Position numbers and translations under genes: made by a program. From assembly GCA_963703285.1 (NCBI GenBank), contig OY969807.1:928001-992000 (forward strand): a stretch of 64,000 nucleotides of DNA. Direction: 5' to 3'. The notes under the pieces are model-generated. The model saw only the letters and a list, made by a program, of their open reading frames with translations. It was not told the DNA's origin and searched no databases. This DNA comes from an uncultured Nitrososphaerota archaeon. GTDB taxonomy: Archaea > Thermoproteota > Nitrososphaeria > Nitrososphaerales > Gagatemarchaeaceae. This document shows, one piece after another, positions 37,054 to 54,853 of the stretch; the stretch's first letter is position 1; every line of letters starts with the position of its first letter.

Positions 37054-38133
37054 CTAGGATGAACTACTAGCAGTGACCGTAGACTCACTAGTGGTGACCG
37101 AAGCGAGTGGGGTGAGTGAGGTGACTGGACCGATTAGGCTGCTGAGGGCCTTCTGCACGACCCCCTGAGCGATGTAGACCCGGAAGGCGTTCCCCGTGCC
37201 CGTCGTCAGCGGTGTGGCGCCAGAGAGGGCCTTGGTGGCAGCGGCCGATATCACGCTCGCGTTGAGCTGCTGGCCGTTCAGGTAGCTCTCTGCGGCCGTG
37301 GCGCGGATGGGCTTGTTGGCGACCCCTCCCAAGACCAGCCTCACGTTCGAGGCGGTGGTCCCGCTCAGGGTCGCGCTGACCGCGCAGCTGGCGAGTGCGA
37401 AGTCGATCGCGCTTCTGTCGCTCGCCTTGTAGAAGGCGCTGACCGAGCCCGACGCTGGGGCGGGGACGTTTATCGAGGTCACGATCTCGTTGTAGCGGAG
37501 GCTGTTCTCCTTGACGCGGCCGTCGACGATGCTGACTCCCGGCATGAAGGAGTCCATCGACTCGGTCGTCGAACCCCCTGGTCCCTGGATGGTCACGGTG
37601 GCGTTGAGGGCGAAGAGGGCGGGCGTTATGTCGCCCGCGTGCACTGCGTAGCAGAGGTTGCCGCCGAAGAGGCTGTGGTAGTAGCGGTTGTCGCCGTTGG
37701 GTGCGTAGCAGACGTTCCCGCCGTTGCGCCAGCAGTCGTAGTTGTTCCTCAGGTACCAGCACCAGACCTCCTGGGAGATGTCGCCCGCCACGGTCGCCTG
37801 GTTGGCGATCTGCGCGGGATGGCCGGAGACCGCGCCGTAGAGCGCACCGTAGTTCGCCTTGACGTCGGAGTTGTTGAGCAGGTCTGAGACGTTGGTGGTG
37901 GCTCCTATCGTGAGTCCCGAGCTCGAGCTGTAGCTTATGCCGCTCAGGTTGAGCCCGGTGATGTCGACGACATACTGCGGCGTGAGGAGGTCGATGTGCT
38001 CCTTCATCTGGTAGAGTAGGTCGGTACCTCCGGCGATGACCCTCGCCTGACCGCCGTACTTGGTCAGGAGCGAGACCGCGTCACTGACCGATGTTGGCTG
38101 TAGGTATCCGAATTGCGCTAATTCGTTTCTCAT
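37054..38133 (-). CDS. FAD-binding subunit (PaoB-like), copy 2
   Basis: IAGGTDL, CWYLRNNYDCWRNGG..CYA; close paralog of 18992-20104. Confidence 0.9.
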   Translation of the reverse strand: MRNELAQFGYLQPTSVSDAVSLLTKYGGQARVIAGGTDLLYQMKEHIDLLTPQYVVDITGLNLSGISYSSSSGLTIGATTNVSDLLNNSDVKANYGALYGAVSGHPAQIANQATVAGDISQEVWCWYLRNNYDCWRNGGNVCYAPNGDNRYYHSLFGGNLCYAVHAGDITPALFALNATVTIQGPGGSTTESMDSFMPGVSIVDGRVKENSLRYNEIVTSINVPAPASGSVSAFYKASDRSAIDFALASCAVSATLSGTTASNVRLVLGGVANKPIRATAAESYLNGQQLNASVISAAATKALSGATPLTTGTGNAFRVYIAQGVVQKALSSLIGPVTSLTPLASVTTSESTVTASSSS

Positions 38134-38146
38134 CTGTCTTCACCAC

Positions 38147-40531
38147 TTAGAGTTTCCCGTTCGCCTGCATCCACTGCAGCGCGGCCACAATGTCCTCCTT
38201 CCTCATTGGGACGCTCGTGAACCTGTAGCCGCCCAGGGCGTTGCTCATCGCGTTCGCTATCGCGGCCGAGGTGGCGCACAGGGAGTCCTCGCCCATCCCC
38301 TTGGCCCCGAACGGGCCCGTCGGGTCGAGGCTCTCGTAGGGGAGGCACGTGAAGCTGGAGGGTGCCTGCATGATGGTCGGTATCTTCATGTCGAGGTAGT
38401 TCGGGTTGAGGTAGCTTCCGGAACGGGCGAGACCAGTCGTCGGGTCGTTGAGCACCTCCTCGAAGAGCGCCTCGCCCATCCCGAGGCCGATGAAGGCGCC
38501 CTCGAGCTGGGACCGGGCTCCCTTCGCGAAGACGACGCGGCCTATGTCCAGCGCGCTCACGACGCTCACGACCTCGGCGTCGGCGGTCAGCGTGTCGACG
38601 GCCACCATCGCGATCTTCGTCCCGGAGTCGCGGTGCGTGAACGCGAGGCCCGGGAACTCCGAGGGGGGCCCGTACCCGGTGACTGTGAGGGGCGCGCTGA
38701 GGAGCGCCGCCGCCTGCTGGAAGGTCATCTGGTTGGAGGGGTTCGTCGTGTCGTAGATTATTCCCGAGGGCTGCGGCGAGACGCTCCCGCCGACGCCGCT
38801 GAAGCCGGCTCCGATGCCACCGCCGAACGCGAGGTTGGACGCCTTGGTGCCGGGGGCCAGGGCTGCCGCCACTATCGGGAACCACGCGCGTCCGAGGGCG
38901 GTGGCGGCGGATAGCACCCCGAGGCCGCCGGTCATCGTGCCCAGGCTGCCGAAGGTGCCGCCGGAGTCAGAGGTGACCGACGTGTCGCCAGAGTAGTATG
39001 TCACGTTCTCGAGCGAGCTGAGTCCGATGAACTGCGCCGCCAGCAGGGGAAGCGTCGTGGTGGTGCCCCCTCCCTGGTCGGACTGTCCGTTGTAGATGGC
39101 CACGCTCCCGTCGGGGTTGACGGTTATCTGGCCCCAGCAGACAGGCATGTAACCTCCCTTGTTGCAGCTCTCGAGAGCCAGGCCGACGCCGTAGCGGATG
39201 GAGCCGCTCGTCGAGCTCGGGACGCCCCAGCCCTTCCAGAGCGACGTCCAGTTGAAGGCGCTCGTTGCAGAGTTGAAGACCTGCGGCTGGGGGAGAGTGC
39301 TGTAGGGCGTGCCGGCCACGGGGTCCGTGGCTGTGGCGCTCGTCCTCATGTTGTTGAGCCTGAAGGTGACGGGGTCGATCCCGAGCTGATCCGCGAGCAT
39401 GTCTATGGTCGACTCCATCGCGAAGTGGGTCTGGCTCTCTCCGACGTCCCTCATTGGGGTGCCCATGCTGTACGCGTTGGTGCTTACGACGTACTGGTTG
39501 ATCTCGAGGTTCGGGACGACGTACGTGTTGTAGAAGTCGTCAGCGCCGTCCGTCATGCTGCCTCCGACGGCGCCCATGTTGTAGTACATGTTCACCTGCA
39601 TCGCTGTCAGGAGGCCTGCCTTCGTCCCGCCGAACGCGCAGTAGCACCTAGTGGGGAACCTGCTGTTTGTCGAGCGTGCGTCCGCGAAGCGAGTGCCAAC
39701 CCACTTGACGGGCGCGCCGACCTTCTGGGACATCGCAGCGGCGATGACGAGGTCGTTCGCGTTGGAGCTGTTGCCGAACATTCCGCCGTTGGCGGAGTGG
39801 GTTGTGCCTCCGAGGGCCACCCTGCAGACCACGTCCGAGACCGGGATCCCGAAGTAGCTCGCCAGGCTAGACTGGTCGCCGAAGGCGTAGTTGGTCCTCT
39901 CCCAGACGTAGAGCTGGCCTCCCGTCCACCAGGCGACGCAGCCGCTCGGTTCGATCTGGAAGTGCTGGAGGATTGGGTAGTCGAACCTCTGGGAGACCAC
40001 CGCGTCAGCCGCGGAGAGGGCCGACGCAGCGTCTCCGTAGGAGATCGTGACCGGCTCTGGGCCCGTCAGGCTGTTCCCTCCCGGGTAGAGCTGAGGTGCG
40101 CCAGGCTTGAGCGCCTCCTCCGGGTCGAAGACGTATGGCTGCGGCTCATAGGCAACGTCCACGAGGTCGATGCCGTCCTGGACGGTGTCAGGGTCGGTCG
40201 AAGCGACGGCCGCCACCGGCTGGCCGGCGTAGAGGACTGACCCCCTCGCCAGGGGCAGGAAATTTCGACCCTGGTTAATGAAGTTGTATGCAGGCAGGTC
40301 GGCTGCGGTCAGCACCGTGTATCCCGCTGCCTCGGCCTTGCTCACGTCGATGCTCTTGATCAGAGCGCTCGGATGGGGGCTGAGGACCCTGCCCATGTAG
40401 ACCATGCTGGAGGCCCCGATGTCGCTTGCCGAGATGTCGGCGGTCCAGTGTCTCGTCCCGTTGATCCTGTTCATGAGGTCCTGTCTCGTGACGCTGGCGT
40501 TGCCGACTAATGAGTAGGAGGAGGAAGACAT
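38147..40531 (-). CDS. Molybdopterin-binding large subunit, xanthine oxidase family, copy 2
   Basis: QHFQIEP, DQGGGT, GTFGS, SQLEG, GPFGAKGMGE; start at MSSSS preferred (ORF open to 40564). Confidence 0.9.
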   Translation of the reverse strand: MSSSSYSLVGNASVTRQDLMNRINGTRHWTADISASDIGASSMVYMGRVLSPHPSALIKSIDVSKAEAAGYTVLTAADLPAYNFINQGRNFLPLARGSVLYAGQPVAAVASTDPDTVQDGIDLVDVAYEPQPYVFDPEEALKPGAPQLYPGGNSLTGPEPVTISYGDAASALSAADAVVSQRFDYPILQHFQIEPSGCVAWWTGGQLYVWERTNYAFGDQSSLASYFGIPVSDVVCRVALGGTTHSANGGMFGNSSNANDLVIAAAMSQKVGAPVKWVGTRFADARSTNSRFPTRCYCAFGGTKAGLLTAMQVNMYYNMGAVGGSMTDGADDFYNTYVVPNLEINQYVVSTNAYSMGTPMRDVGESQTHFAMESTIDMLADQLGIDPVTFRLNNMRTSATATDPVAGTPYSTLPQPQVFNSATSAFNWTSLWKGWGVPSSTSGSIRYGVGLALESCNKGGYMPVCWGQITVNPDGSVAIYNGQSDQGGGTTTTLPLLAAQFIGLSSLENVTYYSGDTSVTSDSGGTFGSLGTMTGGLGVLSAATALGRAWFPIVAAALAPGTKASNLAFGGGIGAGFSGVGGSVSPQPSGIIYDTTNPSNQMTFQQAAALLSAPLTVTGYGPPSEFPGLAFTHRDSGTKIAMVAVDTLTADAEVVSVVSALDIGRVVFAKGARSQLEGAFIGLGMGEALFEEVLNDPTTGLARSGSYLNPNYLDMKIPTIMQAPSSFTCLPYESLDPTGPFGAKGMGEDSLCATSAAIANAMSNALGGYRFTSVPMRKEDIVAALQWMQANGKL

Positions 40532-40535
40532 TCTC

Positions 40536-41327
40536 TCACGCACCTCCCAAGTTCGTCGCCGCAAGCTGTACGGAGGCGATTATGTTCAGATAGTTGCCGC
40601 ACCGGCAGAGGTTGCCCGAGAGCGCCTGCTGTATCTGCGCCACCGTGGGGCTCGTGTTCTGCTTCAGCAGCGCCGCGGCGGCCATGATGCTGCCGGGCGA
40701 ACAGAAGGCGCACTGGCCTCCGTCGTTCTGGACCCAAGCAGCCTGAAGAGCGGCGATCACCGGGTCAGCCGGCACCGCAACTGTGCCAGTCGACGACATT
40801 GTTGGGAGGCCCCCCTCGGTCGTCAGTATCGTGTGGCCGCCTGCCCTTATCGCCGGGTACTGGCACGCCTCGTGGGCTTCGCCGTCTATCAGGACCGTGC
40901 AGGCGCCGCACGCCATCCTGTTGCACCCCATCTTGGTGCCGACGAGCCCGAGGTCTTCCCGGAGAACGGTGGCCAGCATGTCTCTCGGCTCGACCGAGAC
41001 GGTGTAGCTGGTTCCGTTGACCGTGAACGTCACCGTCTGGGCGGCGAACGGGTTGGCCGCTGCAGCCGCAGGCACAGCCGGCACCGACGAGGTCTGCTGT
41101 ATGCCGCTCCCCGAGGTCTGCAGGACACCCCCTCGCAGCGCCAGGGCGGATACGCCCACGACGGCGCCCGCCGCCATGGTGCCCTTGAGAAGCGTGCGTT
41201 TGCTTACCTTAGTTTCCAAAATCTTCTCGACCGGTCCTGCAGACTCGCCGACCTTCTGGGAAGGTATCTTGTTCGGAGTGCTTGCCTTCTTCCGAACGCG
41301 TTTCGTACTTTTGTCAGTATCTGTCAA
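40536..41327 (-). CDS. 2x[2Fe-2S] subunit with KR-variant Tat signal, copy 2
   Basis: SKRTLLK plus hydrophobic stretch; GCNRMACGACTV, QCAFCSPG, NLCRCG. Confidence 0.9.
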   Translation of the reverse strand: MTDTDKSTKRVRKKASTPNKIPSQKVGESAGPVEKILETKVSKRTLLKGTMAAGAVVGVSALALRGGVLQTSGSGIQQTSSVPAVPAAAAANPFAAQTVTFTVNGTSYTVSVEPRDMLATVLREDLGLVGTKMGCNRMACGACTVLIDGEAHEACQYPAIRAGGHTILTTEGGLPTMSSTGTVAVPADPVIAALQAAWVQNDGGQCAFCSPGSIMAAAALLKQNTSPTVAQIQQALSGNLCRCGNYLNIIASVQLAATNLGGA

Positions 41328-41360: not shown

Positions 41361-42104
41361 AGACGTATTTGTCGAGTTCCCCGTATCCATTCGGGCCCCT
41401 CTCACAAATGAGACGAGAGGACTCGAGGACAACTAGCGGCAGGAGACCGTCGCGCGACCCGCTGTCTGGACGGAGCGCACCTGTATCCGAAGTCTGCGAG
41501 GGCAGCAACCGAATTGACCACTCCAAGCGAAAGGGCCTTCGTCTTGGTCTCAATCCTTAATCTGCCCAAATCGGCTCCCTTTGTGTCAAACGAGTCGCAA
41601 ATGGCCTTATCTTCAATTCCGAACACAAAAACCGAAAAAGGCTAAACACCGCCTAGTTTTCAAATCAGAGCTGTATCCTGGCTGTTTTCGAGTTTTCACC
41701 TAAACACATACCAAAGTTCTTGCCATCAACGAGCTTCTTCACCTTATCAGGTAATTCAATGGCGAAACATGAACCTCTTTCAAGAGCAGAGTTTTAGGAT
41801 TTGCGCTCCGGCATGTGCCATGTTCTGGTCGCCAACGAAGCGTAACGTTGGAAAAGAATGTGGGCCGGAACGGGTGTAAACTGTAGTAGAGCTTGGGTCT
41901 CCACTTCCAATTGCCAATCGTGCCACTGCTTGTCGACTTTCAGCGTCGGCCTCTCCTTGATGATTACTCTTGTAGGTTGGGTGCTCAAGCGCCGGCCGTC
42001 TCCTTCCCCCCTGCAACTCGCAAAATCGCCTACTGATTCTCAAAACTCTACGACACTTCGAAGGGGCCCGCCGGTGAACGACCTTCTTGAGGCGAACAGA
42101 CGAG

Positions 42105-42692
42105 CTATGAGACCTTTCTCCTTGAGGCTGTCATCATGATCGTCCCCCGGTTTATTTCGTGTTTGGCTACGTCGTAGCCGTAGCCGTTGAGAACCGACCG
42201 CAGGAAAGCAAAGGAGCACTCGGTTGATTCAATCTTCCTTCCAGCGCCGACTATGTTGATCTCCACCACGTCGTCGCCTTGCAGCTTGGAAACGGTGAAC
42301 CGTTTTATTGGGATCAGCAGGGTGAAGTCTCTTGCGAGGTCTGCGAGTTCGTTCAGGTCCTTGGCACCGGCCTTGAGGATACCAACGGTGTTACTCCCTA
42401 GCGCGGTGAACATAGCAAGCAGACCCTCCTTGTCCTCGGCGTACATCCTCGCGAGGATCTCGTCGACGAAGTCGGAAGGGAGGGTGATCACATCTATCTG
42501 CTTCATCAGGGAGACTGAACGCCATAGCCTGTAGAGCTCCGCGGGATCTCCGCCTTCTGCTGATATCTTTGACATCGTCGAGAGAGACTGGTTTGCGAAC
42601 GCAAACATGGTTCTCTCCCTTCGTTTTGCCTCGGAGGAGAACTCCTCAAAAATCTTGTGATCGATGAAGATGCTGGCACGCGACATGAACAC
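42105..42692 (-). CDS. Hypothetical protein with a putative N-terminal ribbon-helix-helix; paralog of 50554-51228
   Basis: Shared FEEFS..AKR...T.FAFAN.SL, ITLPSDFVD, IVGAGR.IESTECSF. Confidence 0.75.
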   Translation of the reverse strand: MFMSRASIFIDHKIFEEFSSEAKRRERTMFAFANQSLSTMSKISAEGGDPAELYRLWRSVSLMKQIDVITLPSDFVDEILARMYAEDKEGLLAMFTALGSNTVGILKAGAKDLNELADLARDFTLLIPIKRFTVSKLQGDDVVEINIVGAGRKIESTECSFAFLRSVLNGYGYDVAKHEINRGTIMMTASRRKVS

Positions 42693-43047
42693 TCATCACT
42701 CTGACACAAGGGATTAATGGTTATCCCTTTTAAAAACGCTTAGTTTTGTATTAAACCTTCTTTTTCTTCTTTCTTCAATTTCAGAAAAAGATATGTCTCC
42801 TTCTGTCCATCTATATGTTGCATCTTCACCGGTCCCTGTTTCCTTTTGCTCTGACGCCATACATCGTCAAATGTCTACGAACGTACACAAGCATAAACAT
42901 ATTATCCCGAATGGGTTCGAGTATGTTATCAAGAAATTACTTCACCCCTACTGAAGGCGAGTAAACTAGGCCAAAATCTGTGCTCGACTGGGCTCTGAGC
43001 TTCCGACCACTCCTCTTCTCCTCTTCTTCTACTATCTTATAGAAAGG

Positions 43048-43593
43048 ATGGGGAATCTTTCGGAGAATCTCTCGACCGTAATTGACCTTCTGGTAGCAGC
43101 GCTCTTCCTATCCGCTGGGGCTCTGGCGATAGAGCCAAGAATCCAAGACCGGAGGCAAGTGGGCGCTGTCGTCGACGACCTTAAGAGTCCGGAGGTGCGA
43201 TTGAACGTGCAACTCAAGTTGAAGGCAGAAGTAACGAAGCTGGTTTCGACTGAAGAGGCGAAGATGATTCTGCATAACTTCCCGACTCTTCTACCTATGA
43301 TTAACGGCCTCACGCTGATGAACGAGAACGAAGCCCTAAGTCGAGAACTCGAAGCGAGCGAGGCGATTCTCGTGGACACGATCGTCGGTGGAGGGTGTGG
43401 GGCATCCTCCTATCAATCTCGAGCACAGCAGTTAGCGATCGATGCCATAAGGACGATGACTCTTCCCAAGGATGCAAAGATGGTCAGGAGGCCCAAATCA
43501 CTGCCGGGCCCGCCTACGTTACTGTCAAAGTACGGACTTGCACCTCATCCGTCAATGCTGCCGCTGGACGAGGGGCCCGTAATCTACCCTTGA
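43048..43593 (+). CDS. Hypothetical membrane-anchored protein
   Basis: 181-aa ORF with a hydrophobic N-terminal segment. Confidence 0.5.
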   Translation: MGNLSENLSTVIDLLVAALFLSAGALAIEPRIQDRRQVGAVVDDLKSPEVRLNVQLKLKAEVTKLVSTEEAKMILHNFPTLLPMINGLTLMNENEALSRELEASEAILVDTIVGGGCGASSYQSRAQQLAIDAIRTMTLPKDAKMVRRPKSLPGPPTLLSKYGLAPHPSMLPLDEGPVIYP

Positions 43594-44052
43594 CGCCGTA
43601 AAGAGCCCATTTCACGGCCAAGGACTACCTCAGGAGGAGCATCGTTCAAGCCCGATAAACGAACTACATGTCTGTTCGGGCGCAAAGAGTTTGCCATGAG
43701 ACCAACGATCCGCGGCCCGGGCTCGAACCTCCGCACTATACCAAGACGCGGATTTGCACACCAAAGTGGTCGGATCCACCGGCCCTACCAACGATTCAGA
43801 CTTTCCGAAGAACGAATCTGGTGGTTGACCTATATAAGATGCCGTGACTGTCGCACGACTCTAATTGAGCTTTCCAGTCATTTTGTCCCCCGGTATGTTG
43901 ATCGCCCTTCCTTTGGAACAGATAGCCCTGGTTGGTTAATCGGTCTACAGAGATGATTACGGTATCCATCCAGGATCACTGATTCTCATATGTACGCGAT
44001 CCTAGCATGGGAACATTGGTCAAGCCTATCATCAGGACCCAAATGCTCTACT

Positions 44053-44469
44053 CTATCCGCCTGTCATCGACCCAAGGAAAGCCACAGTGTCTCCGTTCTT
44101 GAGCATTGGATTGCCTTGCGGAGGCGTTCCATTCAACAGAATCTGCATAGAATGCATGGTTTCTAATGCCGGGTGTTCCTGACAGACCTCTGTAATCAAC
44201 TGGGAAAGGGATGACGGGGCGGATATTTGCATGTTTTCCATGCTCGACCCAATTACACCCGCCATGCCAAGGTAGTAGACTTCGACGTTCAGGAAGAGTT
44301 GCGCGCTAAGGGGGGGACTCTTATCCGTACCTGATTGCGGTTGATGATTCTGTGAGAGGAAAATAAGCAGCCCCTTCGTGCCCAGCAGAGCAACGGATGC
44401 GCCGGCTGTTATGATGACCATCTTACCCAATGCTTCGCGCCTTGTTAACTTTGACAAGCTATGGGACAT
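44053..44469 (-). CDS. MoaD/ThiS/SAMP-like beta-grasp protein with an N-terminal Tat-like signal and C-terminal GG
   Basis: LTRREALGK plus hydrophobic helix; VEVYYLG...HPAL...ILLNG...LKNGDTVAFLGSMTGG*. Confidence 0.85.
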   Translation of the reverse strand: MSHSLSKLTRREALGKMVIITAGASVALLGTKGLLIFLSQNHQPQSGTDKSPPLSAQLFLNVEVYYLGMAGVIGSSMENMQISAPSSLSQLITEVCQEHPALETMHSMQILLNGTPPQGNPMLKNGDTVAFLGSMTGG

Positions 44470-44478
44470 CTCTCTCCG

Positions 44479-44979
44479 TTACAGAGTGAAAGTGCAATTG
44501 CCTTCGTTTGTGACCATCTGCACGATGAGTGACTGGTTGTTCGATAAGACGCCTAGGTACAGCGTGGCATCCTCACCTGGTAGAATAGTTGCACTACAAA
44601 GGCCGCCAGTGTCCATATTCCAATGCTGCGCCTGAGGGAATATGAGGCCGTTTGTGGGTGCTTCGCAGAAAGAGGAAGTGTTGTTGACCGCGAGCAACGG
44701 AACGCCCCCTCCGAGCACTCCTTGAATCAAGGGCTCCCCGTTCGAGATAACTTTGAGAATCGTCAGGTTCTCGTTTCCTAGGTTTGTCAGGGTCAGTGAA
44801 GGTTCGCTGCTGTTGCAACAATTGCCGTATCCCACTAGCTTGAGTTGTGGTGTGTTCTGACTCGCGGGTGGGTCCCCAGTGAAGTAAATCTGGGACAGCG
44901 TGATAGACGCGAGCAGCAATACCAGGGGCAGAACAACAACGAGCAGCTTTGCGAAGGCGCCAATCTTCTTATTTGTCAA
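44479..44979 (-). CDS. Membrane-anchored extracellular Cys-containing protein
   Basis: N-terminal TM; five Cys; Ig-like LTNLG..L.I..V..NG strand. Confidence 0.7.
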   Translation of the reverse strand: MTNKKIGAFAKLLVVVLPLVLLLASITLSQIYFTGDPPASQNTPQLKLVGYGNCCNSSEPSLTLTNLGNENLTILKVISNGEPLIQGVLGGGVPLLAVNNTSSFCEAPTNGLIFPQAQHWNMDTGGLCSATILPGEDATLYLGVLSNNQSLIVQMVTNEGNCTFTL

Positions 44980-45973
44980 CCTTAGCTCTCCTCTTTTTTG
45001 TTACAAGAACGTGTACCAGCGCGAACCCTATCACCCCGTAGACTGAAGCGAGGACCAAAATGAAAATGCTCACCACGACTGCGGTTGGGATGGGTGGTAC
45101 TCCTACCAGTCTGAGGTCGACGGAACTTCCCTGACCACTAACGTAGGGCGATGCGGAATCCGTCGCGGATGGATCGTTTTGAATGGCGGCAGTCACGTTG
45201 CTTGCCCCGTAGCTCTTGCTTCCCGAGTAGGAGGCGTAAAGGAGTCCTCCCCATTGGGAAGGCAACTGGTAAGTCAGATAGGCGGTGCCATTTGACTGAG
45301 TTTGGCTCGAGCCGATAGCCATTAGCCCGAAGTCGGTAGGTATGGAGAAGTCGACTTGAGCACCTGCAATGGGAGCCCCGTTGGAATCGGTCAGTCCAAC
45401 GGCAGCAAGAAGCTCGTCGCCATGAACGTTCATGGAAAGCGCGCTCAGTTTCGTACTGGTAGTCGTCGTACTGGTAGTACTGCTGGTGCTGGTGGTGCTG
45501 GTGCTCGTTGAGCTGCTGGTGGTTGTGCTGCTGCTCCCGGTTGAGCCGGATGAGCTAGTAGTGCTTTGTTGGGCAGGCGTTACGATGAACCAGCCGTTCT
45601 GCATGTTGGCCATTCCGAGACAGGGTATGATGCAGTGAATTCTGAATGTTCCCGCCGCATTCGCCGTAAATTGAACCACTGAAATCGGGCTCTGCGCGTT
45701 AAGAACCGCCGAGGTGACGTTGTATCCATCGACCTCAATTTGATGGGCGTTATACGGTACGTTGGTGTCGTTCCAGACGAATTTGATTATCACAGTGTCC
45801 CCTTGGGAGACCGGACCTAGCGTGAAGTTTCCCGATGTTCCGTTGAAGCCAGCTTCGCTCACGTAGACAGTGAAGCTATCCGTAGCGCTTGTCTTCTGAG
45901 CCGCGGTAAGATGCGAAGGCTGCATTACCAGCAGCAGAAGTACAAGCAGGGAGATTGTGAAGATTTTACGCGT
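44969..45973 (-). CDS. CuA-like cupredoxin + Ser/Thr linker + Ig-like domain + C-terminal TM; probable ACG start
   Basis: HQIE and HCIIPCLGMANM; signal peptide RKIFTISLLVLLLLV lies upstream of the first ATG (45925), behind GGAGG-N9-ACG. Confidence 0.8.
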   Translation of the reverse strand, partial: TRKIFTISLLVLLLLVMQPSHLTAAQKTSATDSFTVYVSEAGFNGTSGNFTLGPVSQGDTVIIKFVWNDTNVPYNAHQIEVDGYNVTSAVLNAQSPISVVQFTANAAGTFRIHCIIPCLGMANMQNGWFIVTPAQQSTTSSSGSTGSSSTTTSSSTSTSTTSTSSTTSTTTTSTKLSALSMNVHGDELLAAVGLTDSNGAPIAGAQVDFSIPTDFGLMAIGSSQTQSNGTAYLTYQLPSQWGGLLYASYSGSKSYGASNVTAAIQNDPSATDSASPYVSGQGSSVDLRLVGVPPIPTAVVVSIFILVLASVYGVIGFALVHVLVTKKRRAKVDK

Positions 45974-47924
45974 TTGTGTCCGCCTCCATGGAGTTTGCTA
46001 TCTTCATTAGCTTGGGAAGCGCGAGGTTCGCAAATATTGAGCATCTCCTTCCGTTCGACCACCACTGGAGCTGTCCGGGCTCGGCTGGTTGTCCGGCCTG
46101 TTTCGACGACGCTCGTGTGAAACCTGCGTGCCCTTCAACAGTTATCCTGTCATAGCCCTTTGGCAAAAAGGCGGGAGGACTATCGATGACATCCTCTTTT
46201 ATCTGAAGGATCGCGATATCCACACTGTCGGTGTAGATGTTGAGCGGTTCCATCGATTCGCTAGTGTAGAGAAGGCCGACCATGGCTCCGTCGGCGGAGA
46301 TTCTCGCTTCGTGAAGGGTAGCTCCTTCAGGAAGAGATGATGGAAAAGAAACGAAAAACGACGCCTTAGTCCTCGCTTCCTCCTGACTGATTAATTCGCC
46401 AATGCTGGACAGCTGCACCTTCTCTTGATTGATAGGCTCTTGACTGACAGAATTCGCGGTATCTTTGTTCTGCATATCAGAAGGAAGGAAGCTGAGAGCG
46501 GCGATCCCTGCGGTCAGCCCTACGGCAGCGACCAGGCCATTTCTGAGGAATGCTCGCCTTCCGGTGGATTGGGGCGCTTCAGGGTCGCTGCCTGAATAAG
46601 TTGCCAGCGCGGGTGGGATAATCGGCGCTCTAGCGACAGTGTCCCCGTCGCCCTCGTTGACCTCCCAGATTGAGATCATTGGTACTAGCCTGCTCACGAT
46701 AATCAACAGCAGAGCGACGCCCGCAAACCCAGCGGCGGTAACCGAGAGCTCCTCCCAAGAGGGAATGTAGCTCCCAACTGCATATGGCAACCCGAGCTGC
46801 GGAACAGCTAGGGCCGGAATCACTATCAGAAAACGTTCCAGCCACATCCCGATGTTTGCGAGTATCGCGGCCACGACTATCCAGCCAACTCTCCTCGTCA
46901 CAGGGAGCGATATGATTGCCGCGGGCAGGATCAACCCGCCCACCAACATGAACCAGAAGTAGGGAGCGTAGGCACCCGTGAACAACGACGTCAAGTATTG
47001 AACGTCCAACGTTTCAGAAGACCAAGAGGGTGCCATGTATTCACTCAGCGTGAGATAGATCATCGCCAAGTCCGCTGCAAGGAAGATGTATGCCAGATAC
47101 AGAAAGTGCTTAACCTCTATGTACCGCTCAAGGTGATAGAACCTGCGGAAAGCATAGACGACAATCAATATCGTCGCGAGGCCGGAGTAGACTGCACCCA
47201 TGACGAAGAATATCGGGAAGATTGTGCTGTGCCATTCGACCCTGAGGGTAACAGAAAACACCCAGGAGAGAACGGAATGCACTGTGACCGCGATTGGCAC
47301 GACGAGTATCGCCATAATCTTGATGGACTTGTTCAACCTGCTCGCCTGCTCGGCTCCGCCTGACCAGCCTAGAGAGAGCCTAGTGTAGAGCCAACCTCTC
47401 AGCTTTGAGACTTTCTTCAGGGAATCTCTGCAGATGGCGAGGTCTGGGATGAGTGGCAGGTAGAAGTAGAGCAAGCTCGCCACAAGATACGTAACTATTG
47501 CGATTGTGTCCCATGTTATGGGCGACTGTAACCTGGGGAAGATTAGGAGGTTGATTGCCCTCTGGGGCATGCCCAGGTCCAGTATTGGAAATAAGGCACC
47601 TATCGGGAGAGAGCAGATAGTTATCATCTCTGCGATTCGCGTTATTGGTCTCCTCCATGTTGCGTTGGAGAGCCTGAGGATTCCGGAGATTATTGTCCCT
47701 GCCATGCTTATCGCTATGAAATAGACGAAGTCGACTATGTTCAGGCCCCATGCTACAGGAAGCCTGTCTCCCGTCAACCCAAGACCGTAGACATACTCAA
47801 GGTAGAACGCGTAGAGGCCCCATCCTATCACCGCAACCAACGAGGTCACAATAAGGAAGAATCGAAAACCGTGGGACTTCAGAGGTCCCAAGATCGACTG
47901 TGTATCTTTCTCACTATCTGTCAT
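45966..47924 (-). CDS. NrfD/PsrC-family polytopic membrane protein fused to an internal Tat-like signal and an extracellular domain
   Basis: WGL.I.DFVYFI, I.RIAE, DLG.PQR, SPI.WD, VHSV, GMWLERF; then TGRRAFLRNG plus TM. Confidence 0.9.
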   Translation of the reverse strand: MTDSEKDTQSILGPLKSHGFRFFLIVTSLVAVIGWGLYAFYLEYVYGLGLTGDRLPVAWGLNIVDFVYFIAISMAGTIISGILRLSNATWRRPITRIAEMITICSLPIGALFPILDLGMPQRAINLLIFPRLQSPITWDTIAIVTYLVASLLYFYLPLIPDLAICRDSLKKVSKLRGWLYTRLSLGWSGGAEQASRLNKSIKIMAILVVPIAVTVHSVLSWVFSVTLRVEWHSTIFPIFFVMGAVYSGLATILIVVYAFRRFYHLERYIEVKHFLYLAYIFLAADLAMIYLTLSEYMAPSWSSETLDVQYLTSLFTGAYAPYFWFMLVGGLILPAAIISLPVTRRVGWIVVAAILANIGMWLERFLIVIPALAVPQLGLPYAVGSYIPSWEELSVTAAGFAGVALLLIIVSRLVPMISIWEVNEGDGDTVARAPIIPPALATYSGSDPEAPQSTGRRAFLRNGLVAAVGLTAGIAALSFLPSDMQNKDTANSVSQEPINQEKVQLSSIGELISQEEARTKASFFVSFPSSLPEGATLHEARISADGAMVGLLYTSESMEPLNIYTDSVDIAILQIKEDVIDSPPAFLPKGYDRITVEGHAGFTRASSKQAGQPAEPGQLQWWSNGRRCSIFANLALPKLMKIANSMEADTNA

Positions 47925-48712
47925 TGTGTATCACCCTTTGGAGGAAGATAGATGACCTGCGGAAGTGTACCATATTCTTCATTCAGTCTGTAAGCGCCCC
48001 GCTTCTCTATCATACCGCTCAGAGAGACAGCGACCTGTCCGTTGCTTATCACGTCCTGTGCTGCGTCTCCGAACCAGAGAGCGCTCATTCCTGCCGCGCT
48101 GCATGCGGCCACACACGCAGGGACGTCGCCTTCCGTGACCCTGTGTCTGCACCAAATACATTTTTCAGCTACACCCTTTCTGTGTGGGACGTTAGTGTCG
48201 GGCGAGTAGACAACGTTAGCTTCGTCCGGAGTCACGGGTGGGTCGAACCAGTTGAAGAACCTCCTTTCGTAGGGACAGGCTACAAGACAGTACCTACAGC
48301 CGACGCATCTGTCTTGGTCAATCAGCACGATATGGTCGTCACTGTAGAAGGTGGCTCCAACCGGGCAGACCTTGGCGCATGGGGCGTCTTGACAGTTCTG
48401 ACAAGGCACAGGCATGAATACACCACCGCCGACGTCGAAGACCTGAATCCATGCCTGTCTGCCATCATACTGCATTTCGCCATCCCACGCCGGTGGCACG
48501 TCCATTTCAGCCTGACAAGCTTCGGTACACTTGCTGCAACCATCACAGTTGTTAAGGTCTATGACAAAGACGTACTGCTTGCTCGCGTCTGAAGAGCTTT
48601 CGGAGACCGCTGCACTTGCTTTCGGGAGGAGACTACCGGACGCAGCGCAAAGCGTCAGACCTGCAGCGGCCGCCGAGGCACCGACCAAGAATTTCCTCCT
48701 TTCTGGATCCAA
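47921..48712 (-). CDS. Tat-exported multi-[4Fe-4S] protein (NrfC/DmsB-like)
   Basis: ERRKFL signal; CDGCSKCTEAC, CQNCQDAPCAKVCP, CVGCRYCLVACP, KCIWC..PACVAAC. Confidence 0.92.
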   Translation of the reverse strand: MDPERRKFLVGASAAAAGLTLCAASGSLLPKASAAVSESSSDASKQYVFVIDLNNCDGCSKCTEACQAEMDVPPAWDGEMQYDGRQAWIQVFDVGGGVFMPVPCQNCQDAPCAKVCPVGATFYSDDHIVLIDQDRCVGCRYCLVACPYERRFFNWFDPPVTPDEANVVYSPDTNVPHRKGVAEKCIWCRHRVTEGDVPACVAACSAAGMSALWFGDAAQDVISNGQVAVSLSGMIEKRGAYRLNEEYGTLPQVIYLPPKGDTQ

Positions 48713-48739
48713 GATCGAAAACCCGTTTGGATCGATGCA

Positions 48740-50272
48740 TCAAGCTCCTTGCTTGGTAGTCCCTCTGCGCAAAGCCATGAACGACGTGCCAATGGCAATG
48801 ATGGCTATGAGCGCGGCAATTGCACCAACAATCAGACCTGTTGTGTCAGTTGTGTCGGACGATGTTGTTGTCTGAGCAACGGTCGTCGTCACGAGCACAA
48901 ATGTTGTTGTCTGGGCTACGGTCGCTGTCTGAGTTATGGTTGTTGTCTGAGGTACGGTCGCTGTCTGAGTTATGGTTGTTGTCTGAGGTACGGTCGCTGT
49001 CTGAGTTATGGTTGTTGTCTGAGGTACGGTCGCTGTCTGAGTTATGGTTGTTGTCTGGGCTACGGTCGTTGTTGTTACGCTACTGATGGTAATCACTGTG
49101 CCGGAAATCGGAACTTTCACAGTCGAGTCCATCACGTTTCCGCCCACTGAGGTACTATTTGCATTGATTATGTCGATGCCGTAGTACTCGTTGTGGAAGC
49201 TGTTGTCAGTAATCAGTGAATTCACCACCGCAACAGACTTCAAGGTGGATTCTCCGCCCACGATTATTCCACTTAGCGTTGGAGCGGAGCCGTCATTGCT
49301 GAGCACATTCCCGCTGATGATCTCATCCTTGTTTACGGCTCCAGCCGCATTCGCATGCAGAATGATGCCGCCCTCCCCTGTGTTGACGACTGTATTCGAG
49401 AGGACACTACTGCCTGATACTTGTGTATTGGCGTCATCAGCCGCTACAACTATGCCCGCAATATCGTCTACTACCATGTTGTTGCTGATTATGGTGTTCG
49501 ATACTCCCTCGCCCGGGTCATAGGCAGAAAGGACGATGGAGCAGGCGCCGGTGTTGTCTATGTCCGAGTTGCCGGTGATGATGTTACCATTAGCTGGATT
49601 TGGAGTCCCGGTTGGAATGCCCGCGCTAGGTATTGCAGTACTGTTCCAGGAGGGGTCAACTGCCCCATCGTCGTCGACGCCTATTCCTCCGGCGTAATTT
49701 CCTATCACGGTGTTGTCAGCTACCGTGGAGTTCGAGGTGCCTGTCAGCTCGATCGCCTTATTTTCGTCAATCGTAGAAAGGGGAGTCACACCATTGCCAG
49801 TAACTACATTGTCTTGGATTGCTACACCAGAGCTATCCTGTACATAGACGCCATGGTTGTTTGCGTTCTCAACCGTAAGGCCTTGAATTACCGACCCGGC
49901 TGCCGTAGAACCGAATATGGCAATCCCATTAGGCTGACCAGCCGCGTTGATGATTGTATTTGATGGCTCTGAGCTTTGAGATTCGAGCGCAAGTTTCTTC
50001 GAAATCGTCACCATCTCGTTGTATGCGCCAGGAAGGACAATGATGGTAGCACCAGTAGGTGCGACCGAGACCGCGTGAGAAATTGTCGCGTAGGGGCTAG
50101 CGAGGGTACCCGTCCCACTTGTATTGCTGCCCGTCGTGCTTACGTACAGTACAGTTGCCGCAGCACTTGCGGGCCGGACAAGAAGAACGCCGGCCGAAAA
50201 AGCAAAGAGGAGAATTAAGCATACTACTACGGGCATTGTTGTGCGTATATGCGGCTTCACGTTCTGGTGCAT
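48740..50272 (-). CDS. Surface right-handed parallel beta-helix protein (NosD/pectin-lyase-like) with Thr-rich stalk and C-terminal anchor
   Basis: Signal peptide; YVSTTGSN..G....PYATISHAV, PGAYNE; Asn/Gly beta-helix repeats. Confidence 0.85.
   Translation of the reverse strand: MHQNVKPHIRTTMPVVVCLILLFAFSAGVLLVRPASAAATVLYVSTTGSNTSGTGTLASPYATISHAVSVAPTGATIIVLPGAYNEMVTISKKLALESQSSEPSNTIINAAGQPNGIAIFGSTAAGSVIQGLTVENANNHGVYVQDSSGVAIQDNVVTGNGVTPLSTIDENKAIELTGTSNSTVADNTVIGNYAGGIGVDDDGAVDPSWNSTAIPSAGIPTGTPNPANGNIITGNSDIDNTGACSIVLSAYDPGEGVSNTIISNNMVVDDIAGIVVAADDANTQVSGSSVLSNTVVNTGEGGIILHANAAGAVNKDEIISGNVLSNDGSAPTLSGIIVGGESTLKSVAVVNSLITDNSFHNEYYGIDIINANSTSVGGNVMDSTVKVPISGTVITISSVTTTTVAQTTTITQTATVPQTTTITQTATVPQTTTITQTATVPQTTTITQTATVAQTTTFVLVTTTVAQTTTSSDTTDTTGLIVGAIAALIAIIAIGTSFMALRRGTTKQGA
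48904..49075. repeat. 36-bp tandem repeat (about 4.5 copies) encoding TTTITQTATV(P/A)Q
   Basis: Seen directly in the sequence. Confidence 0.9.
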
Positions 50273-50553
50273 GGAAACGCATGCGGAACGTGCACTAAAA
50301 ACCTCATCCGTTTAGATGCGTACTTTCGCACAAAATTGTATGCAGACCCGCGCATTCCGAGTTGCAAACAACCCAAGGTAACTTCGAACTTACCCATCCT
50401 TTGAAAGTCAACCAACCTAGGGACAATCTCTGTACGTTTAATGGCGTTCTCGTGCGAGAAATCATGTGTTTAGGCGTTGGTTGGTGTAATTTCTTCACTC
50501 GATTGAACCACTCGATTGAACTGAAGACGGAGCCTCCGATGACAGCGAGGTGG

Positions 50554-51228
50554 CTAGGATAACCTTCTCTTGGAGGCCCTCACCATAATCGTGCCTATGT
50601 TTATGTCGTGGTTCGTCACCGTATACCCGTAACCATTGAGAATAGACTGTAGGAAGACGAATGAGCACTCGGTAGACTCTATCCTTCTTCCGGCCCCAAC
50701 GATCCCAATCTCTACGGAGTCATCTTTTTGGGACTGAGATATCTTGAACTGCTTTATGGGCAGGAGCGCAGTGAAATCTGTTGCGAGAGCCGCGAGTTCG
50801 CTGAGGTCCTTGGCGCCAAATTTGAGGACTCCAACCAACTCGCTCCCCAGGTCGCTAAACATCTTGAGGAGGCCTTCCTTATCCGATGCGTACTCCCTCG
50901 CAATCAGCCTGTCCACGAAATCTGACGGAAGGGTAATGATGTCTGTCTGCTTCAGCAGGGCGATGGAGCGCCAGAACTTATAAAGGTCTGAAGGCTCTCC
51001 CCCCTCTGCGGTTATCTTCGCCATCGCAGATAGTGACTCGTTCGCGAACGCGAACAAGGTCTTGTCCTTTCGCTTCGCTTGAGCGGAGAACTCTTCGAAG
51101 ACGGCTTGATCCACCGAGAGATTAACCCGCGCCACGAACCCCTTGTGTCGCGAAACCGTGGATTTATCGATATCCTCGCCAGTAGTTCCGGGTTCACCTT
51201 CCGATATTTGCCCGGCAACTTCGGTCAT
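50554..51228 (-). CDS. Hypothetical protein with a putative ribbon-helix-helix; paralog of 42105-42692
   Basis: ARVNLSVDQAVFEEFSAQAKR; high similarity to the paralog. Confidence 0.75.
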   Translation of the reverse strand: MTEVAGQISEGEPGTTGEDIDKSTVSRHKGFVARVNLSVDQAVFEEFSAQAKRKDKTLFAFANESLSAMAKITAEGGEPSDLYKFWRSIALLKQTDIITLPSDFVDRLIAREYASDKEGLLKMFSDLGSELVGVLKFGAKDLSELAALATDFTALLPIKQFKISQSQKDDSVEIGIVGAGRRIESTECSFVFLQSILNGYGYTVTNHDINIGTIMVRASKRRLS

Positions 51229-52073
51229 CTCAGAAGCTCCTCCGCCGTGACACGTTCAGACTCTCTCGGACGGACTACCACGCCATTAACCAGACACTGA
51301 GCCACGGACGCCATGCGTCCGAAGGATAACTCGTCGTCTGCAACGATGCACCCACCGCTTCTACCAATCTTGAAGGCACTCACGGAACAGAGGGAGGTCC
51401 AATCTCCTCTTCCGCTGCAGCATCCGAATTCGATGGCGGCCAGAGGGCAATCCGTAAGAGAAGGATGTACAGTTGGGCCGCTGAGACAGTGCGACTCTTT
51501 CGCGCTCCGACCTTCGGGTTCAGGCATTGCGACCTTGACTAGCGTTCTCCGCAATACGTGTATCCGTACTTTTGCCCGCATTTGTTCGCAGATGCGAGCA
51601 CCCACCTCCGCGTAAGCTGATAAGCGCTCACTTGGGAATAGTCCCGTGCTCCTGTTCATTCTTCTTAGTACAGGACAACAATTCTACGGGCAAGATTCAG
51701 AACGAACCCTGTTCTGCGGGAATGCGGTTCGACTTCCGGTCATTCATGGCATTTCCAATGTGAATCATCAGTAGATAGGGGTTGACGCCTTCGGCGGGGC
51801 TTCCCTCGGGGCACACCGGGCTACCTTGGAGCGAATTGCACGAGTCGGCGGCAGACCCGAGAGTTGGGCCCAACTCGCTTGCGAGCTTCAGCGTGACTGG
51901 GCTTAGAAACGAAGTCAGGGTGACTGAATACGCCAATGCCAGTCCTTGGACTCCTCGGCCTTGAGAACGGGGCGTAGCTCCCAAGCTTCGATTTCCTTCG
52001 GACCCGCTGCCGACAGGAGCCAGAGTCATCGCGGCGCTACGCTTCTCACCGTTGAGAATCATGTCAATGCATA

Positions 52074-53575: not shown

Positions 53576-54853
53576 TCAGAGGTTCTGTCGACTCTTCGGG
53601 TGATCGACGGGTGCGTTAACCGTCGGGCGACGAGCCAACTTCGAGGCATCGACTCTGAGGATTACCGTCTTCGTCGGGTTCCCCTTCATTGCTTCATCTG
53701 CCCCGCCTTTCTCCTCGGCGAGAACCAGCGGTCGTTGCTCGGGATTCTCTGGCTTTGGAAGGGAACTTGCGAGCCTTGCCAGCCCCCTGTCGGATAGGTT
53801 GATTCCGACATTCACATCTCTGTCTATCCACGCCTTACATGTCTGGCACCACAGCATCCTCCTGTGCACGGCATCTCCCCTCTCAGGGTCGTGGAGCTTC
53901 TCCCCACACGCCCAGTGCACCGATGAGGACCCCCTGGTTTCAGACTTCGTAAGCGATATTACAGCGACGCCCTTCCACGCTGCCTTGTACTCGATCATCT
54001 GCTTCGCCCTCCTGTGAGGCCACGAGTTTAGTCTGAACCTGTAATCCGGACCCTGCCCATTTCCTTTCCCGTACATCCTCCTGATGTTGGTGATGTCCTC
54101 GAGAGCCAACGCGGCGCCATCCCTCATCGCGGTATCGACCATGAAGTTCGTGGCGGCGTGGAGCAGCTGGTCAGTCCTATGTGTCGCCCTTCTCCAGCAC
54201 CTGCGAGCGAGGTTCCTCCTCACGCGCACATCGTTCCTCCTGAACGAGCTGACGATCTCTCTGGTCGTCCGCCTGATCTTCACGGCCTTGGTCATGTCGA
54301 CCTGCACGATTCCCCCTCGGTTTCCGAACGTCAGGTTCTTCTCGTTCCTGTCCACACCGAAGACGGTCCTGATCGGCACCTCTCCGACCTCCTCCGAATA
54401 GCAGAACGAGAGCGACCCGGGTGTTATCGTGAGACTTCTGAGCTTCTTCGCAGTAATCTTCGTTACGACATACCTGTTGAGCTGGATGTCGAAATACCTT
54501 TCGCGTCTGAGCGGGATGAAGAACCGACCTTTCATCGTGACGAAGAATCCAGAGATGATGCAGATCGTCGGCCTGAGAGGCTTCGGATGCCGTATCTGAG
54601 TTCCTCTGTCATCGCTCTTCTTCCTGCTCTTCACCACCGCGCAGGCCCTGGTAATCGCGGCGACCTTGTAGCAGGATGGAAGCTCGACATCCTTGAGCGA
54701 GCGATAGAATCTCTTCATCCCCTTCCGGTTCTCGATTCCTTTCTCCTTCGCGTAGGCGATTGCGTTGTAAGTGACCGTGAGACATTGGCAAAGGAGATTG
54801 TGCAGCCCGTCCCCTCCGTCATATGACTGCGCGACGCACTTCGTTCCGAGCAA
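53576..54853 (-). mobile_element. tnpB: IS200/IS605-family TnpB (RNA-guided nuclease), no tnpA
   Basis: RuvC I GVDRN, RuvC II LALED, IEYKAAWKG, Zn finger HWACG..CQTC, RuvC III DRDVN..INL. Confidence 0.9.

Follow-up and report, generated by a model that had tools for sequence, protein, structure and literature searches.

A MoaD-like protein with a twin-arginine signal and a free Gly-Gly end, encoded beside copper redox proteins, probably has an undescribed helper role outside the archaeal cell membrane

The window analysed here is a stretch of 64,000 nucleotides of DNA from an uncultured Nitrososphaerota archaeon. A tight cluster of genes runs on its minus strand from 50272 to 44053, and the last of these encodes a 138-residue MoaD-like protein (P0001). 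A previous sequence-only reading had described at 44053-44469 a Tat motif, a hydrophobic helix, a linker and a beta-grasp domain ending in MTGG. Translation of the open reading frame confirmed this layout, which comprises the following features.

44053..44469, minus strand: whole open reading frame of the MoaD-like protein, 138 residues plus stop
44422..44445, minus strand: twin-arginine motif TRREALGK, residues 9-16 (sub-range translation)
44356..44421, minus strand: hydrophobic segment, residues 17-38, an h-region or membrane anchor (sub-range translation)
44299..44355, minus strand: polar linker, residues 39-57, rich in Ser, Ala, Thr and Pro and variable in length across the family
44056..44298, minus strand: MoaD-type beta-grasp domain, residues 58-138 (translation, model and profile)
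44056-44061, minus strand: free Gly-Gly that closes the MTGG end, followed directly by the stop
44470..44477, minus strand: GGAGAGAG, a putative Shine-Dalgarno-like stretch (DNA reading)

The stretch GGAGAGAG begins 1 base past the stop codon of the upstream gene (44479-44481) and lies directly 5' of the ATG at 44469. G+C is lower in the region around the MoaD-like gene, and a TnpB-like gene lies nearby. Public soil-metagenome contigs match positions 44130-44436 and 44439-44589 without differences, and may derive from the window's own source sample. The sequencing runs listed as carrying the open reading frame were all soil-metagenome DNA, with no RNA run among them.

The possibility was considered that the frame is an annotation artefact, in which the N-terminal extension is untranslated or the gene is a decaying MoaD paralogue. 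The single-sequence Pfam score just below the cut-off (given below) and the lower G+C near the TnpB-like gene would be consistent with this. However, the frame is intact and preceded by a Shine-Dalgarno-like site, and dozens of divergent relatives preserve the N-terminal motif in their protein sequence; this conservation already contradicts an artefact. The sequence-only reading had itself allowed for a real start downstream of the hydrophobic segment. Inspection of the DNA from M17 to M69 showed that no ATG, GTG or TTG lies in frame between the two. In the AlphaFold2 model, M69 comes after strand beta-1 (residues 59-67), so that a start at M69 would remove this strand. Thus, a complete beta-grasp domain made from this frame includes the hydrophobic segment, and an artefact is scarcely credible.

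The assignment of the domain was evaluated with profiles and with a structural model. The Pfam ThiS model (PF02597; cut-off, 22.5 bits) matched residues 82-138 at 22.1 bits with an E-value of 2.2e-4, and in a six-frame search of the genome the same model scored 22.9 bits at this locus and was flagged above the cut-off. The NCBIfam moaD models were far under their cut-offs (TIGR01682, 20.6 vs. 66.15 bits; TIGR01687, 18.8 vs. 49.5 bits). When a profile of 63 family members was compared with solved proteins, it matched 1vjk (1.7e-12) and 6jbz (1.6e-10), followed by 6jc0, 5mpo and 2q5w at about 1e-7. The relatives carry only the public names "MoaD/ThiS family protein" or "molybdopterin converting factor small subunit".

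In the AlphaFold2 model, the pLDDT was above 90 over residues 59-133, with 73 residues of the protein at 90 or more, and the order of strands and helix was that of a beta-grasp. The N-terminal helix (residues 10-28) was modelled at low confidence and was followed by a disordered linker with a pLDDT of 53-59. The top Foldseek matches of the domain in the PDB were MoaD2 (6jc0/6jbz, TM on target 0.83-0.85), human MOCS2A, SAMP1 and 1vjk. The model and the sequence support, as predicted, a beta-grasp of the MoaD/SAMP type with a free Gly-Gly end, placed behind a Tat-type motif.

The conservation of the signal was then set beside that of the C-terminal end. Seven close relatives share 52-70% identity with the protein. 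The RR motif is kept in six of them, the seventh (on a contig of 1042 bases) starting inside the helix, and the Gly-Gly end is present in five, while in the remaining two the sequence departs close to its end in a manner that resembles a frameshift or truncation. A profile search of 1.84 billion representatives at E ≤ 0.001 recovered 122 proteins. An RR motif with a hydrophobic segment was found in 59 of these, 56 of which end in GG, and KR with a hydrophobic segment in 3, all ending in GG. A further 14, probably cut or mis-started, begin inside the hydrophobic segment (13 with GG), and the remaining 46 have no N-terminal signal or hydrophobic segment (42 with GG); the canonical representatives listed without a signal are about 80-125 residues long. 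The joint conservation of RR and GG, on which the sequence-only reading had made its proposal depend, was therefore found, the GG end being present in 59 of the 62 signal-bearing (RR or KR) representatives. Since the two features are kept together at only 22-50% identity, the architecture is not a matter of chance.

The 63-member alignment was assembled from full-length rows picked for an RR or KR motif and GG, both of which are fixed by construction. The first position of the pair is R in 61 of the 63 members and the second in all 63. The surrounding residues fit the Tat consensus, with S or T before the pair in 48/63, L at +3 in 56/63 and R or K at +4 in 49/63. The linker has a rough median length of 33 residues (range, 12-68), and the same signal-linker-domain layout was seen at seven loci in the relatives' genomes. 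A midpoint-rooted tree was calculated from the last 80 residues of 115 rows, and so from few columns. All 63 signal-bearing rows fell on one side of a branch with an SH-aLRT of 91 (not starred), and 19 of the 20 rows on the opposite side were short, canonical-looking MoaD proteins. The short rows on the signal-bearing side may be fragments. As judged from these sequences, the signal-bearing MoaD-like proteins are a conserved clade separate from canonical MoaD.

No fused form of the family was found among proteins of 304-2000 residues, which is weak evidence. Three long open frames with MoaD matches were considered as fusions and rejected, as they are ordinary MoaD genes that follow MoaA. Alignment of the close subfamily against genome and metagenome contigs gave either no relative or one weak, unrelated-looking match (L032).

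Full-length members occurred in 8 of the 37 genomes searched from the window's own family and, among the genomes searched, only in that family. Among 400 sampled genomes from elsewhere in the phylum, the matches listed outside the window's genome cover the domain only, with one exception, and this sole longer match held four stop codons. The window's genome is archaeal by its small-subunit rRNA (SSU model, 1487 bits). Records of relatives carry the label Thaumarchaeota archaeon palsa_1368, or else Nitrososphaerales, Nitrososphaeria or Nitrososphaerota archaeon. Two records (L026 and P0073) are labelled Acidobacteriota, which may reflect a binning error or gene transfer. Passages of a paper on the Gagatemarchaeaceae (PMC10640624) assign palsa-1368 to Group I.1c, that is, to the Gagatemarchaeaceae, and describe the Group I.1c Thaumarchaeota as abundant in acidic soils and non-ammonia-oxidising. 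The palsa-1368 contig belongs to a genome classed in one genus with that of the window, and the window's family is related to Group I.1c.

Several lines of evidence bear on export. The N-terminal region has the form of a Tat signal, a motif like S/T-R-R-x-F-L-K and an uncharged h-region, in that TRREALGK is followed by 22 hydrophobic residues. No match of the Pfam TAT_signal model (PF10518) to the protein was listed at E ≤ 0.1, and none of the NCBIfam Tat-signal models matched at 0.01. The genome encodes TatC (G000:C1:724443-725129, 107.7 bits). The mean net charge in the 63-member family is +2.65 for the flank on the N-terminal side of the hydrophobic segment and +0.62 for the flank on the C-terminal side, and in 46 of the 63 members the N-terminal flank carries the more positive charge. 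The sequence-only reading had named a cytoplasmic position of the domain as a ground for giving up its proposal; the flanking charges favour the opposite topology, with the N-terminus predicted inside and the C-terminus outside. From the charge bias and the Tat consensus, we infer that the MoaD-like domain is exported and lies outside the membrane.

Three kilobases from the MoaD-like gene, at 37054-41327, lie genes for CoxL, CoxM and a CoxS-like subunit whose Tat-like signal has KR. An alternative explanation is that the protein is a membrane-bound MoaD that faces the cytoplasm and serves molybdopterin synthesis near the Tat machinery on behalf of molybdoenzymes destined for export, the CoxSML-like one among them. 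The presence of these Cox genes and the clear likeness of the domain to MoaD fit this explanation, but the Tat consensus and positive N flank predict that the C-terminus is outside, the conserved neighbours are copper proteins and not molybdoenzymes, and a canonical MoaD-MoaE pair is present elsewhere in the genome. The Ser/Thr/Pro stalk, which is typical of archaeal surface proteins, also argues against it, and a cytoplasmic orientation is very improbable.

The ordinary MoaA-MoaD-MoaE set is located at about 699.5-700.1 kb, and the genome has a second MoaE-like gene. No MoaE, MoaA or other Moco gene was found beside the gene studied here, which is surrounded by genes for copper and electron-transfer proteins. 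At about 1057 kb, a ThiS-like gene next to a cupredoxin fragment was also considered; it has no signal and is unrelated to the MoaD-like family. The remainder of the cluster is as follows.

44479..44979, minus strand: 166-residue protein, directly upstream of the MoaD-like gene; its N-terminus bears a hydrophobic signal or anchor, and two of its Cys are invariant
44969..45925, minus strand: 318-residue cupredoxin-like protein (2dv6 alignment, Atlas cluster)
45966..47924, minus strand: NrfD/DsrP-like integral membrane protein, with an in-frame C-terminal domain that starts with its own RR motif
47921..48712, minus strand: DsrO/NrfC-like ferredoxin with 4Fe-4S motifs of the four-cluster type and an N-terminal Tat-type signal
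48740..50272, minus strand: 510-residue secreted beta-helix protein with NosD-like repeats, the first gene of the cluster

The stop codon of the 166-residue protein is 9 nt 5' of the MoaD-like ATG. This protein matched no known family in Pfam or NCBIfam, and its model had a mean pLDDT of 48, too poor for a fold search. One JGI contig of 1662 bases is the source of both a homologue of it (P0141) and a homologue of the MoaD-like protein (P0002), which suggests that the adjacency of the two genes is conserved. The 318-residue protein starts with a cupredoxin-like domain whose type-1 copper site is altered; a Ser/Thr stalk and an Ig-like region come next, and a membrane anchor forms the C-terminus. 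It aligned with the N-terminal (tethered) cupredoxin of the three-domain NirK 2dv6 with an E-value of 8.8e-5 and had an Atlas cupredoxin cluster score of 0.91. No canonical start codon precedes an in-frame, signal-like segment upstream of the cupredoxin gene, so the window's copy may be impaired, and its homologue in a related genome (G011) has a normal hydrophobic signal without an RR motif. In the same related genome, the NrfD/DsrP-like protein and its RR-motif C-terminal domain are two separate genes. The ferredoxin scored 175 bits with the DsrO model (cut-off, 200), and the beta-helix protein has Thr-rich repeats and a C-terminal anchor.

The loci of the relatives are dominated by a different copper protein. 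At seven loci (L014, L017, in which it is split by a frameshift, L018, L019, L020, L026 and L029), the gene directly upstream on the same strand encodes a NirK-type two-domain multicopper protein with a C-terminal plastocyanin-like domain. These are seven of the nine loci other than the window at which the upstream side is visible. The His/Cys/His/Met and His motifs of copper nitrite reductase are kept in the fusions, as judged by eye, and the fusions have the same anchor-stalk-domain layout as the MoaD-like protein. NirK-plastocyanin fusions in Thaumarchaeota have already been noted in passages of an archaeal fusion survey (PMC11237513). At L015, a degenerate cupredoxin-like gene lies directly downstream of the MoaD-like gene. 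At L016, the MoaD-like gene follows a paralogue of the window's 195-residue gene and adjoins a DsrO/NrfD/cupredoxin cluster and Rieske/cytochrome b genes. L021 is cut by the contig end. Counted by genome, the MoaD-like gene is directly downstream of NirK in five of the seven family genomes with a full NirK fusion; in the other two (G028 and G029), no such gene follows NirK directly. No NirK orthologue was found in the window's genome, and G011 has two copies of the MoaD-like gene without a full NirK. Prediction of a complex between the L018 NirK-cupredoxin (residues 75-451) and its own MoaD-like domain gave a score of 0.00, which provides no answer.

These neighbourhoods do not favour the two functions that the sequence-only reading had proposed. 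Sulfur delivery to extracellular Mo/Fe-S enzymes sits poorly with a conserved neighbour that is a copper enzyme, the NirK-type fusion, or a cupredoxin-like protein. A piggy-back export tag is at odds with the observation that the neighbours examined carry their own N-terminal hydrophobic signals or anchors. The 318-residue protein was considered as a possible passenger, its called reading frame having no signal; this was rejected because of the in-frame signal-like segment upstream and the normal signal of the G011 homologue.

The domain was examined for positions that set the signal-bearing family apart. The domain of the 138-residue protein has seven Met, including M69, M105 and M108, which are nearly fixed in the family. 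The mean number of Met per 78-residue domain is 4.43 in the signal-bearing family vs. 1.60 in the canonical clade. Met occupies position 69 in 58 of 63 signal-bearing members as compared to 2 of 20 canonical rows, position 105 in 60/63 vs. 4/20 and position 108 in 61/63 vs. 3/20. The canonical rows have mostly Gln at position 69 and mostly Leu, Ile or Val at positions 105 and 108. Y66, E78, H99-P100, L123, D127, V129, P133 and the GG end are common to the signal-bearing family and the canonical MoaD rows. A new site consisting of H99, M105 and M108 was therefore narrowed to the Mets, since H99 is shared with canonical MoaD. In the ubiquitin fold, the loop after strand 1, the loop from the helix to strand 3 and the start of strand 3 presumably meet where the C-terminal tail exits; if so, M69, M105 and M108 would lie near the tail.

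Given an export signal, an intact GG end and copper-redox neighbours, the MoaD-like protein probably has an undescribed helper role outside the cell membrane. The explanation that we prefer, tentatively and at somewhat less than an even chance, is that it serves copper proteins outside the cytoplasm as an exported or tethered accessory, possibly by handling Cu(I), and works without prior activation. According to this explanation, the Tat pathway would send the MoaD-type domain to the outer face of the cytoplasmic membrane, where the protein would be tethered by an uncleaved signal-anchor and flexible stalk, or released under the S-layer. The signal-bearing clade, of Group I.1c-type Thaumarchaeota, would have left molybdopterin synthesis and become an accessory of cupredoxin-type copper redox proteins outside the cytoplasm. 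Its partner would be the NirK-type nitrite reductase-cupredoxin fusion in most relatives and, in the window, the variant cupredoxin protein belonging to a quinone-linked module of DsrO/NrfD-like proteins. The Met-enriched surface at the tail exit and the slim Gly-Gly tail could bind Cu(I), dock into the partner, or both, and this may help to load or stabilise the partner's copper centre. We infer both the partnership with copper proteins and the copper handling from gene order and the fixed Mets. Counting against this explanation are the lack of a NirK orthologue in the window's genome, the two copies in G011 without a full NirK, the NirK genes of G028 and G029 that no MoaD-like gene directly follows, the possibly impaired cupredoxin gene of the window, the sharing of Y66, E78 and H99 with canonical MoaD, and the absence of the protein from the matches listed for the Tat-signal models.

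A structural role was also considered, in which the exported beta-grasp domain, as an adaptor or an assembly subunit that catalyses nothing, keeps copper enzymes in place at the membrane or within a supercomplex, with neither metal nor C-terminal chemistry. Synteny with the respiratory modules (Rieske/cytochrome b and DsrO/NrfD) and the anchor-stalk layout shared with the NirK partners are consistent with such an adaptor, and beta-grasp domains are often adaptors, according to passages on YukD in a survey of the fold (PMC1779556). However, an adaptor leaves the fixed Mets and the conserved free GG unexplained, and the partners already have anchors of their own. It is accordingly given a low probability.

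The preferred explanation of a copper accessory does not account for the use of Tat or for the almost invariable retention of GG. Both are best explained by the scheme of the sequence-only reading, in which the GG end would be adenylated in the cytoplasm, here by a MoeB-rhodanese E1, giving a thiocarboxylate or a lysine conjugate, and the folded protein would then be exported by Tat. The genome has a single ThiF-family E1, in which a ubiquitin-like domain ending in ITGG is joined to MoeB and rhodanese domains; just upstream of its gene lies one for a JAB protease. Since E1 and TatC are both encoded in the genome, cytoplasmic activation of the GG end of the exported MoaD paralogue before export is possible. 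GG followed by the stop in 59/62 signal-bearing representatives despite identities of 22-50%, and the retention of the MoaD-type positions Y66, E78, H99-P100, D127, V129 and the tail, are in keeping with this scheme. Furthermore, the 166-residue protein and the G011 homologue of the 318-residue protein have signals without RR; with neighbours secreted in this manner, Tat looks like a choice, fitting an obligate cytoplasmic step.

Against activation, no E1, E2-like or JAB gene was found beside the family at any locus inspected, and no extracytoplasmic partner that requires sulfur is evident. NirK and cupredoxins do not need inorganic sulfide. Moreover, a very stable, fast-folding beta-grasp domain could by itself require Tat, and the lack of fused forms among proteins of 304-2000 residues gives no hint, weak as that evidence is, of a conjugation partner. 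Activation before export is thus regarded as unlikely. The two schemes could also be combined, such that an E1-activated thiocarboxylate or conjugate is exported via Tat and, with the Met cluster, binds Cu(I) or delivers it, or sulfur, to NirK or cupredoxins; this combination is more doubtful still. The rest of the probability belongs to something other than the five readings.

To our knowledge, MoaD, ThiS and the SAMPs are regarded as strictly cytoplasmic, their chemistry being ATP-dependent, and we know of no dedicated accessory for archaeal NirK. No description of a signal-bearing MoaD/ThiS/SAMP protein was found in the literature searched, the supplementary gene tables of PMC10640624 lying outside that search. 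None appears in the relevant passages of the beta-grasp surveys PMC1779556 and PMC1949818, or in those of the archaeal fusion survey PMC11237513 and the Gagatemarchaeaceae paper PMC10640624. If the role of copper helper holds, the fold would have a new job that does not involve sulfur, for example as a copper-centre helper for archaeal NirK. If activation before export holds instead, the protein would be the first pre-activated ubiquitin-like carrier to be sent outside the cell. A conserved MoaD-like clade beside NirK also bears on nitrogen-oxide metabolism in Group I.1c Thaumarchaeota.

The protein can be compared with several known systems. SoxY of the Sox thiosulfate oxidation pathway is a carrier that is exported by Tat and offers enzymes of the periplasm a flexible, glycine-rich C-terminal arm. 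The likeness is a functional analogy only, since the fold of SoxY is immunoglobulin-like and its sulfur is bound to a cysteine of the arm, whereas the 138-residue protein has a ubiquitin-like fold and no cysteine near its end. The Rieske iron-sulfur protein shares an N-terminal twin-arginine motif and a long hydrophobic segment that is possibly kept as an anchor, and the Atlas features of the MoaD-like protein weakly resemble a cluster of Rieske Tat signals, with a score of 0.76 that amounts to no more than a lead. However, the passenger domain differs and has no known cofactor. CusF, PCuAC and CopC are periplasmic Cu(I) chaperones with Met or His sites, and by analogy a small, Met-rich extracytoplasmic domain beside copper enzymes may resemble them, although their folds are unrelated and copper binding by the MoaD-like family is putative.

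SAMP1 and SAMP2 of Haloferax (3po0, 4hro and 5lda) have the fold and the diglycine end in common with the 138-residue protein, and a UbaA/MoeB-type E1 and a JAB protease are present in the window's genome, at a distant locus. The similarity of the SAMPs to the 63-member family profile is weak (E 0.16-0.3), and they are cytoplasmic proteins without a signal. MoaD itself (PF02597; TIGR01682/TIGR01687; 1vjk and the mycobacterial MoaD2 6jbz and 6jc0) shares the beta-grasp fold, and the likeness extends to the C-terminal D-x-V-x-F/L-x-P...GG motif, Y66, E78, H99-P100 and the free Gly-Gly. Unlike MoaD, the protein has a twin-arginine motif, a hydrophobic anchor and a stalk, and the signal-bearing family to which it belongs forms a separate clade that is Met-rich, with Met fixed at positions 69, 105 and 108, and that adjoins copper proteins instead of MoaA or MoaE.

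The G+C content was 0.51-0.54 across the operon (window 42000-52000) as compared to 0.60-0.65 in most of the window. Just past this low-G+C region lies a TnpB-like gene. The region may be a transferred island. The genes considered here, within the window and elsewhere in the same genome, are listed below.

37054-41327, minus strand: CoxS/CoxL/CoxM-like molybdenum hydroxylase
42105-42692 and 50554-51228, both minus strand: members of a family of ~195-aa proteins
44969-46000, minus strand: 318-aa cupredoxin-like gene with upstream signal-like segment
45966-47924, minus strand: NrfD/DsrP-like membrane protein fused in frame to a C-terminal domain of ~200 aa
48740-50272, minus strand: beta-helix (NosD-like repeat) surface protein of 510 aa, with which the cluster begins
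53576-54853: TnpB-like gene (Cas12f1-like TNB domain)
Contig C1, 1057068-1057677 (outside the window): ThiS-like gene without a signal, ending AVAGG
Contig C1, 1428588-1430026 (outside the window): sole ThiF-family E1 of the genome

No canonical start precedes the in-frame signal-like segment of the 318-aa cupredoxin-like gene. This segment consists of basic residues followed by a Leu/Val-rich stretch and overlaps the end of the NrfD-like gene. The homologue in a relative's genome (G011, locus L016) starts with an ATG and then a normal signal peptide; in place of this ATG the window has ACG, which could be a non-canonical start, the loss of a start codon or an error. When the protein was aligned to the three-domain NirK structure 2dv6, the expected ligand position was found to lack His and a second Cys was present one residue ahead of it; the type-1 copper site thus looks altered.

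In the NrfD/DsrP-like fusion, the C-terminal domain has an RR motif and a hydrophobic segment of its own at its start. G011 encodes the two parts as distinct genes (L016:258-2374), the second bearing a normal Tat-type signal. The beta-helix protein contains Thr-rich repeats arranged in tandem and has an anchor at its C-terminus. The molybdenum hydroxylase was read from translations only; in its CoxS-like small subunit, a KR Tat-like motif and a hydrophobic segment are part of a long N-terminal extension, suggesting that the enzyme is exported or membrane-bound.

The ~195-aa family has no match in Pfam or NCBIfam. The genome holds six copies, including C1:777255-777839 and three more places, and one of the copies outside the window shares 90.8% identity with that of the window. 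Judged by eye, the N-terminus resembles a ribbon-helix-helix, so the protein may be a regulator. In G011, a family member lies directly upstream of a Tat-MoaD-like gene.

Two members of the MoaD-like family are filed under Acidobacteriota, namely locus L026 (record title Candidatus Acidoferrum sp.), where the same NirK-cupredoxin gene is directly upstream, and protein P0073 (named Terriglobales bacterium). These labels may reflect either a binning error or gene transfer.

The ThiS-like gene ending AVAGG comes just after an apparent cupredoxin domain fragment. In the E1, a ubiquitin-like domain ending ITGG is fused to a MoeB and a rhodanese domain, and a JAB protease gene is located directly upstream; MoaD-MoeB fusions of Thaumarchaeota are mentioned in PMC11237513.
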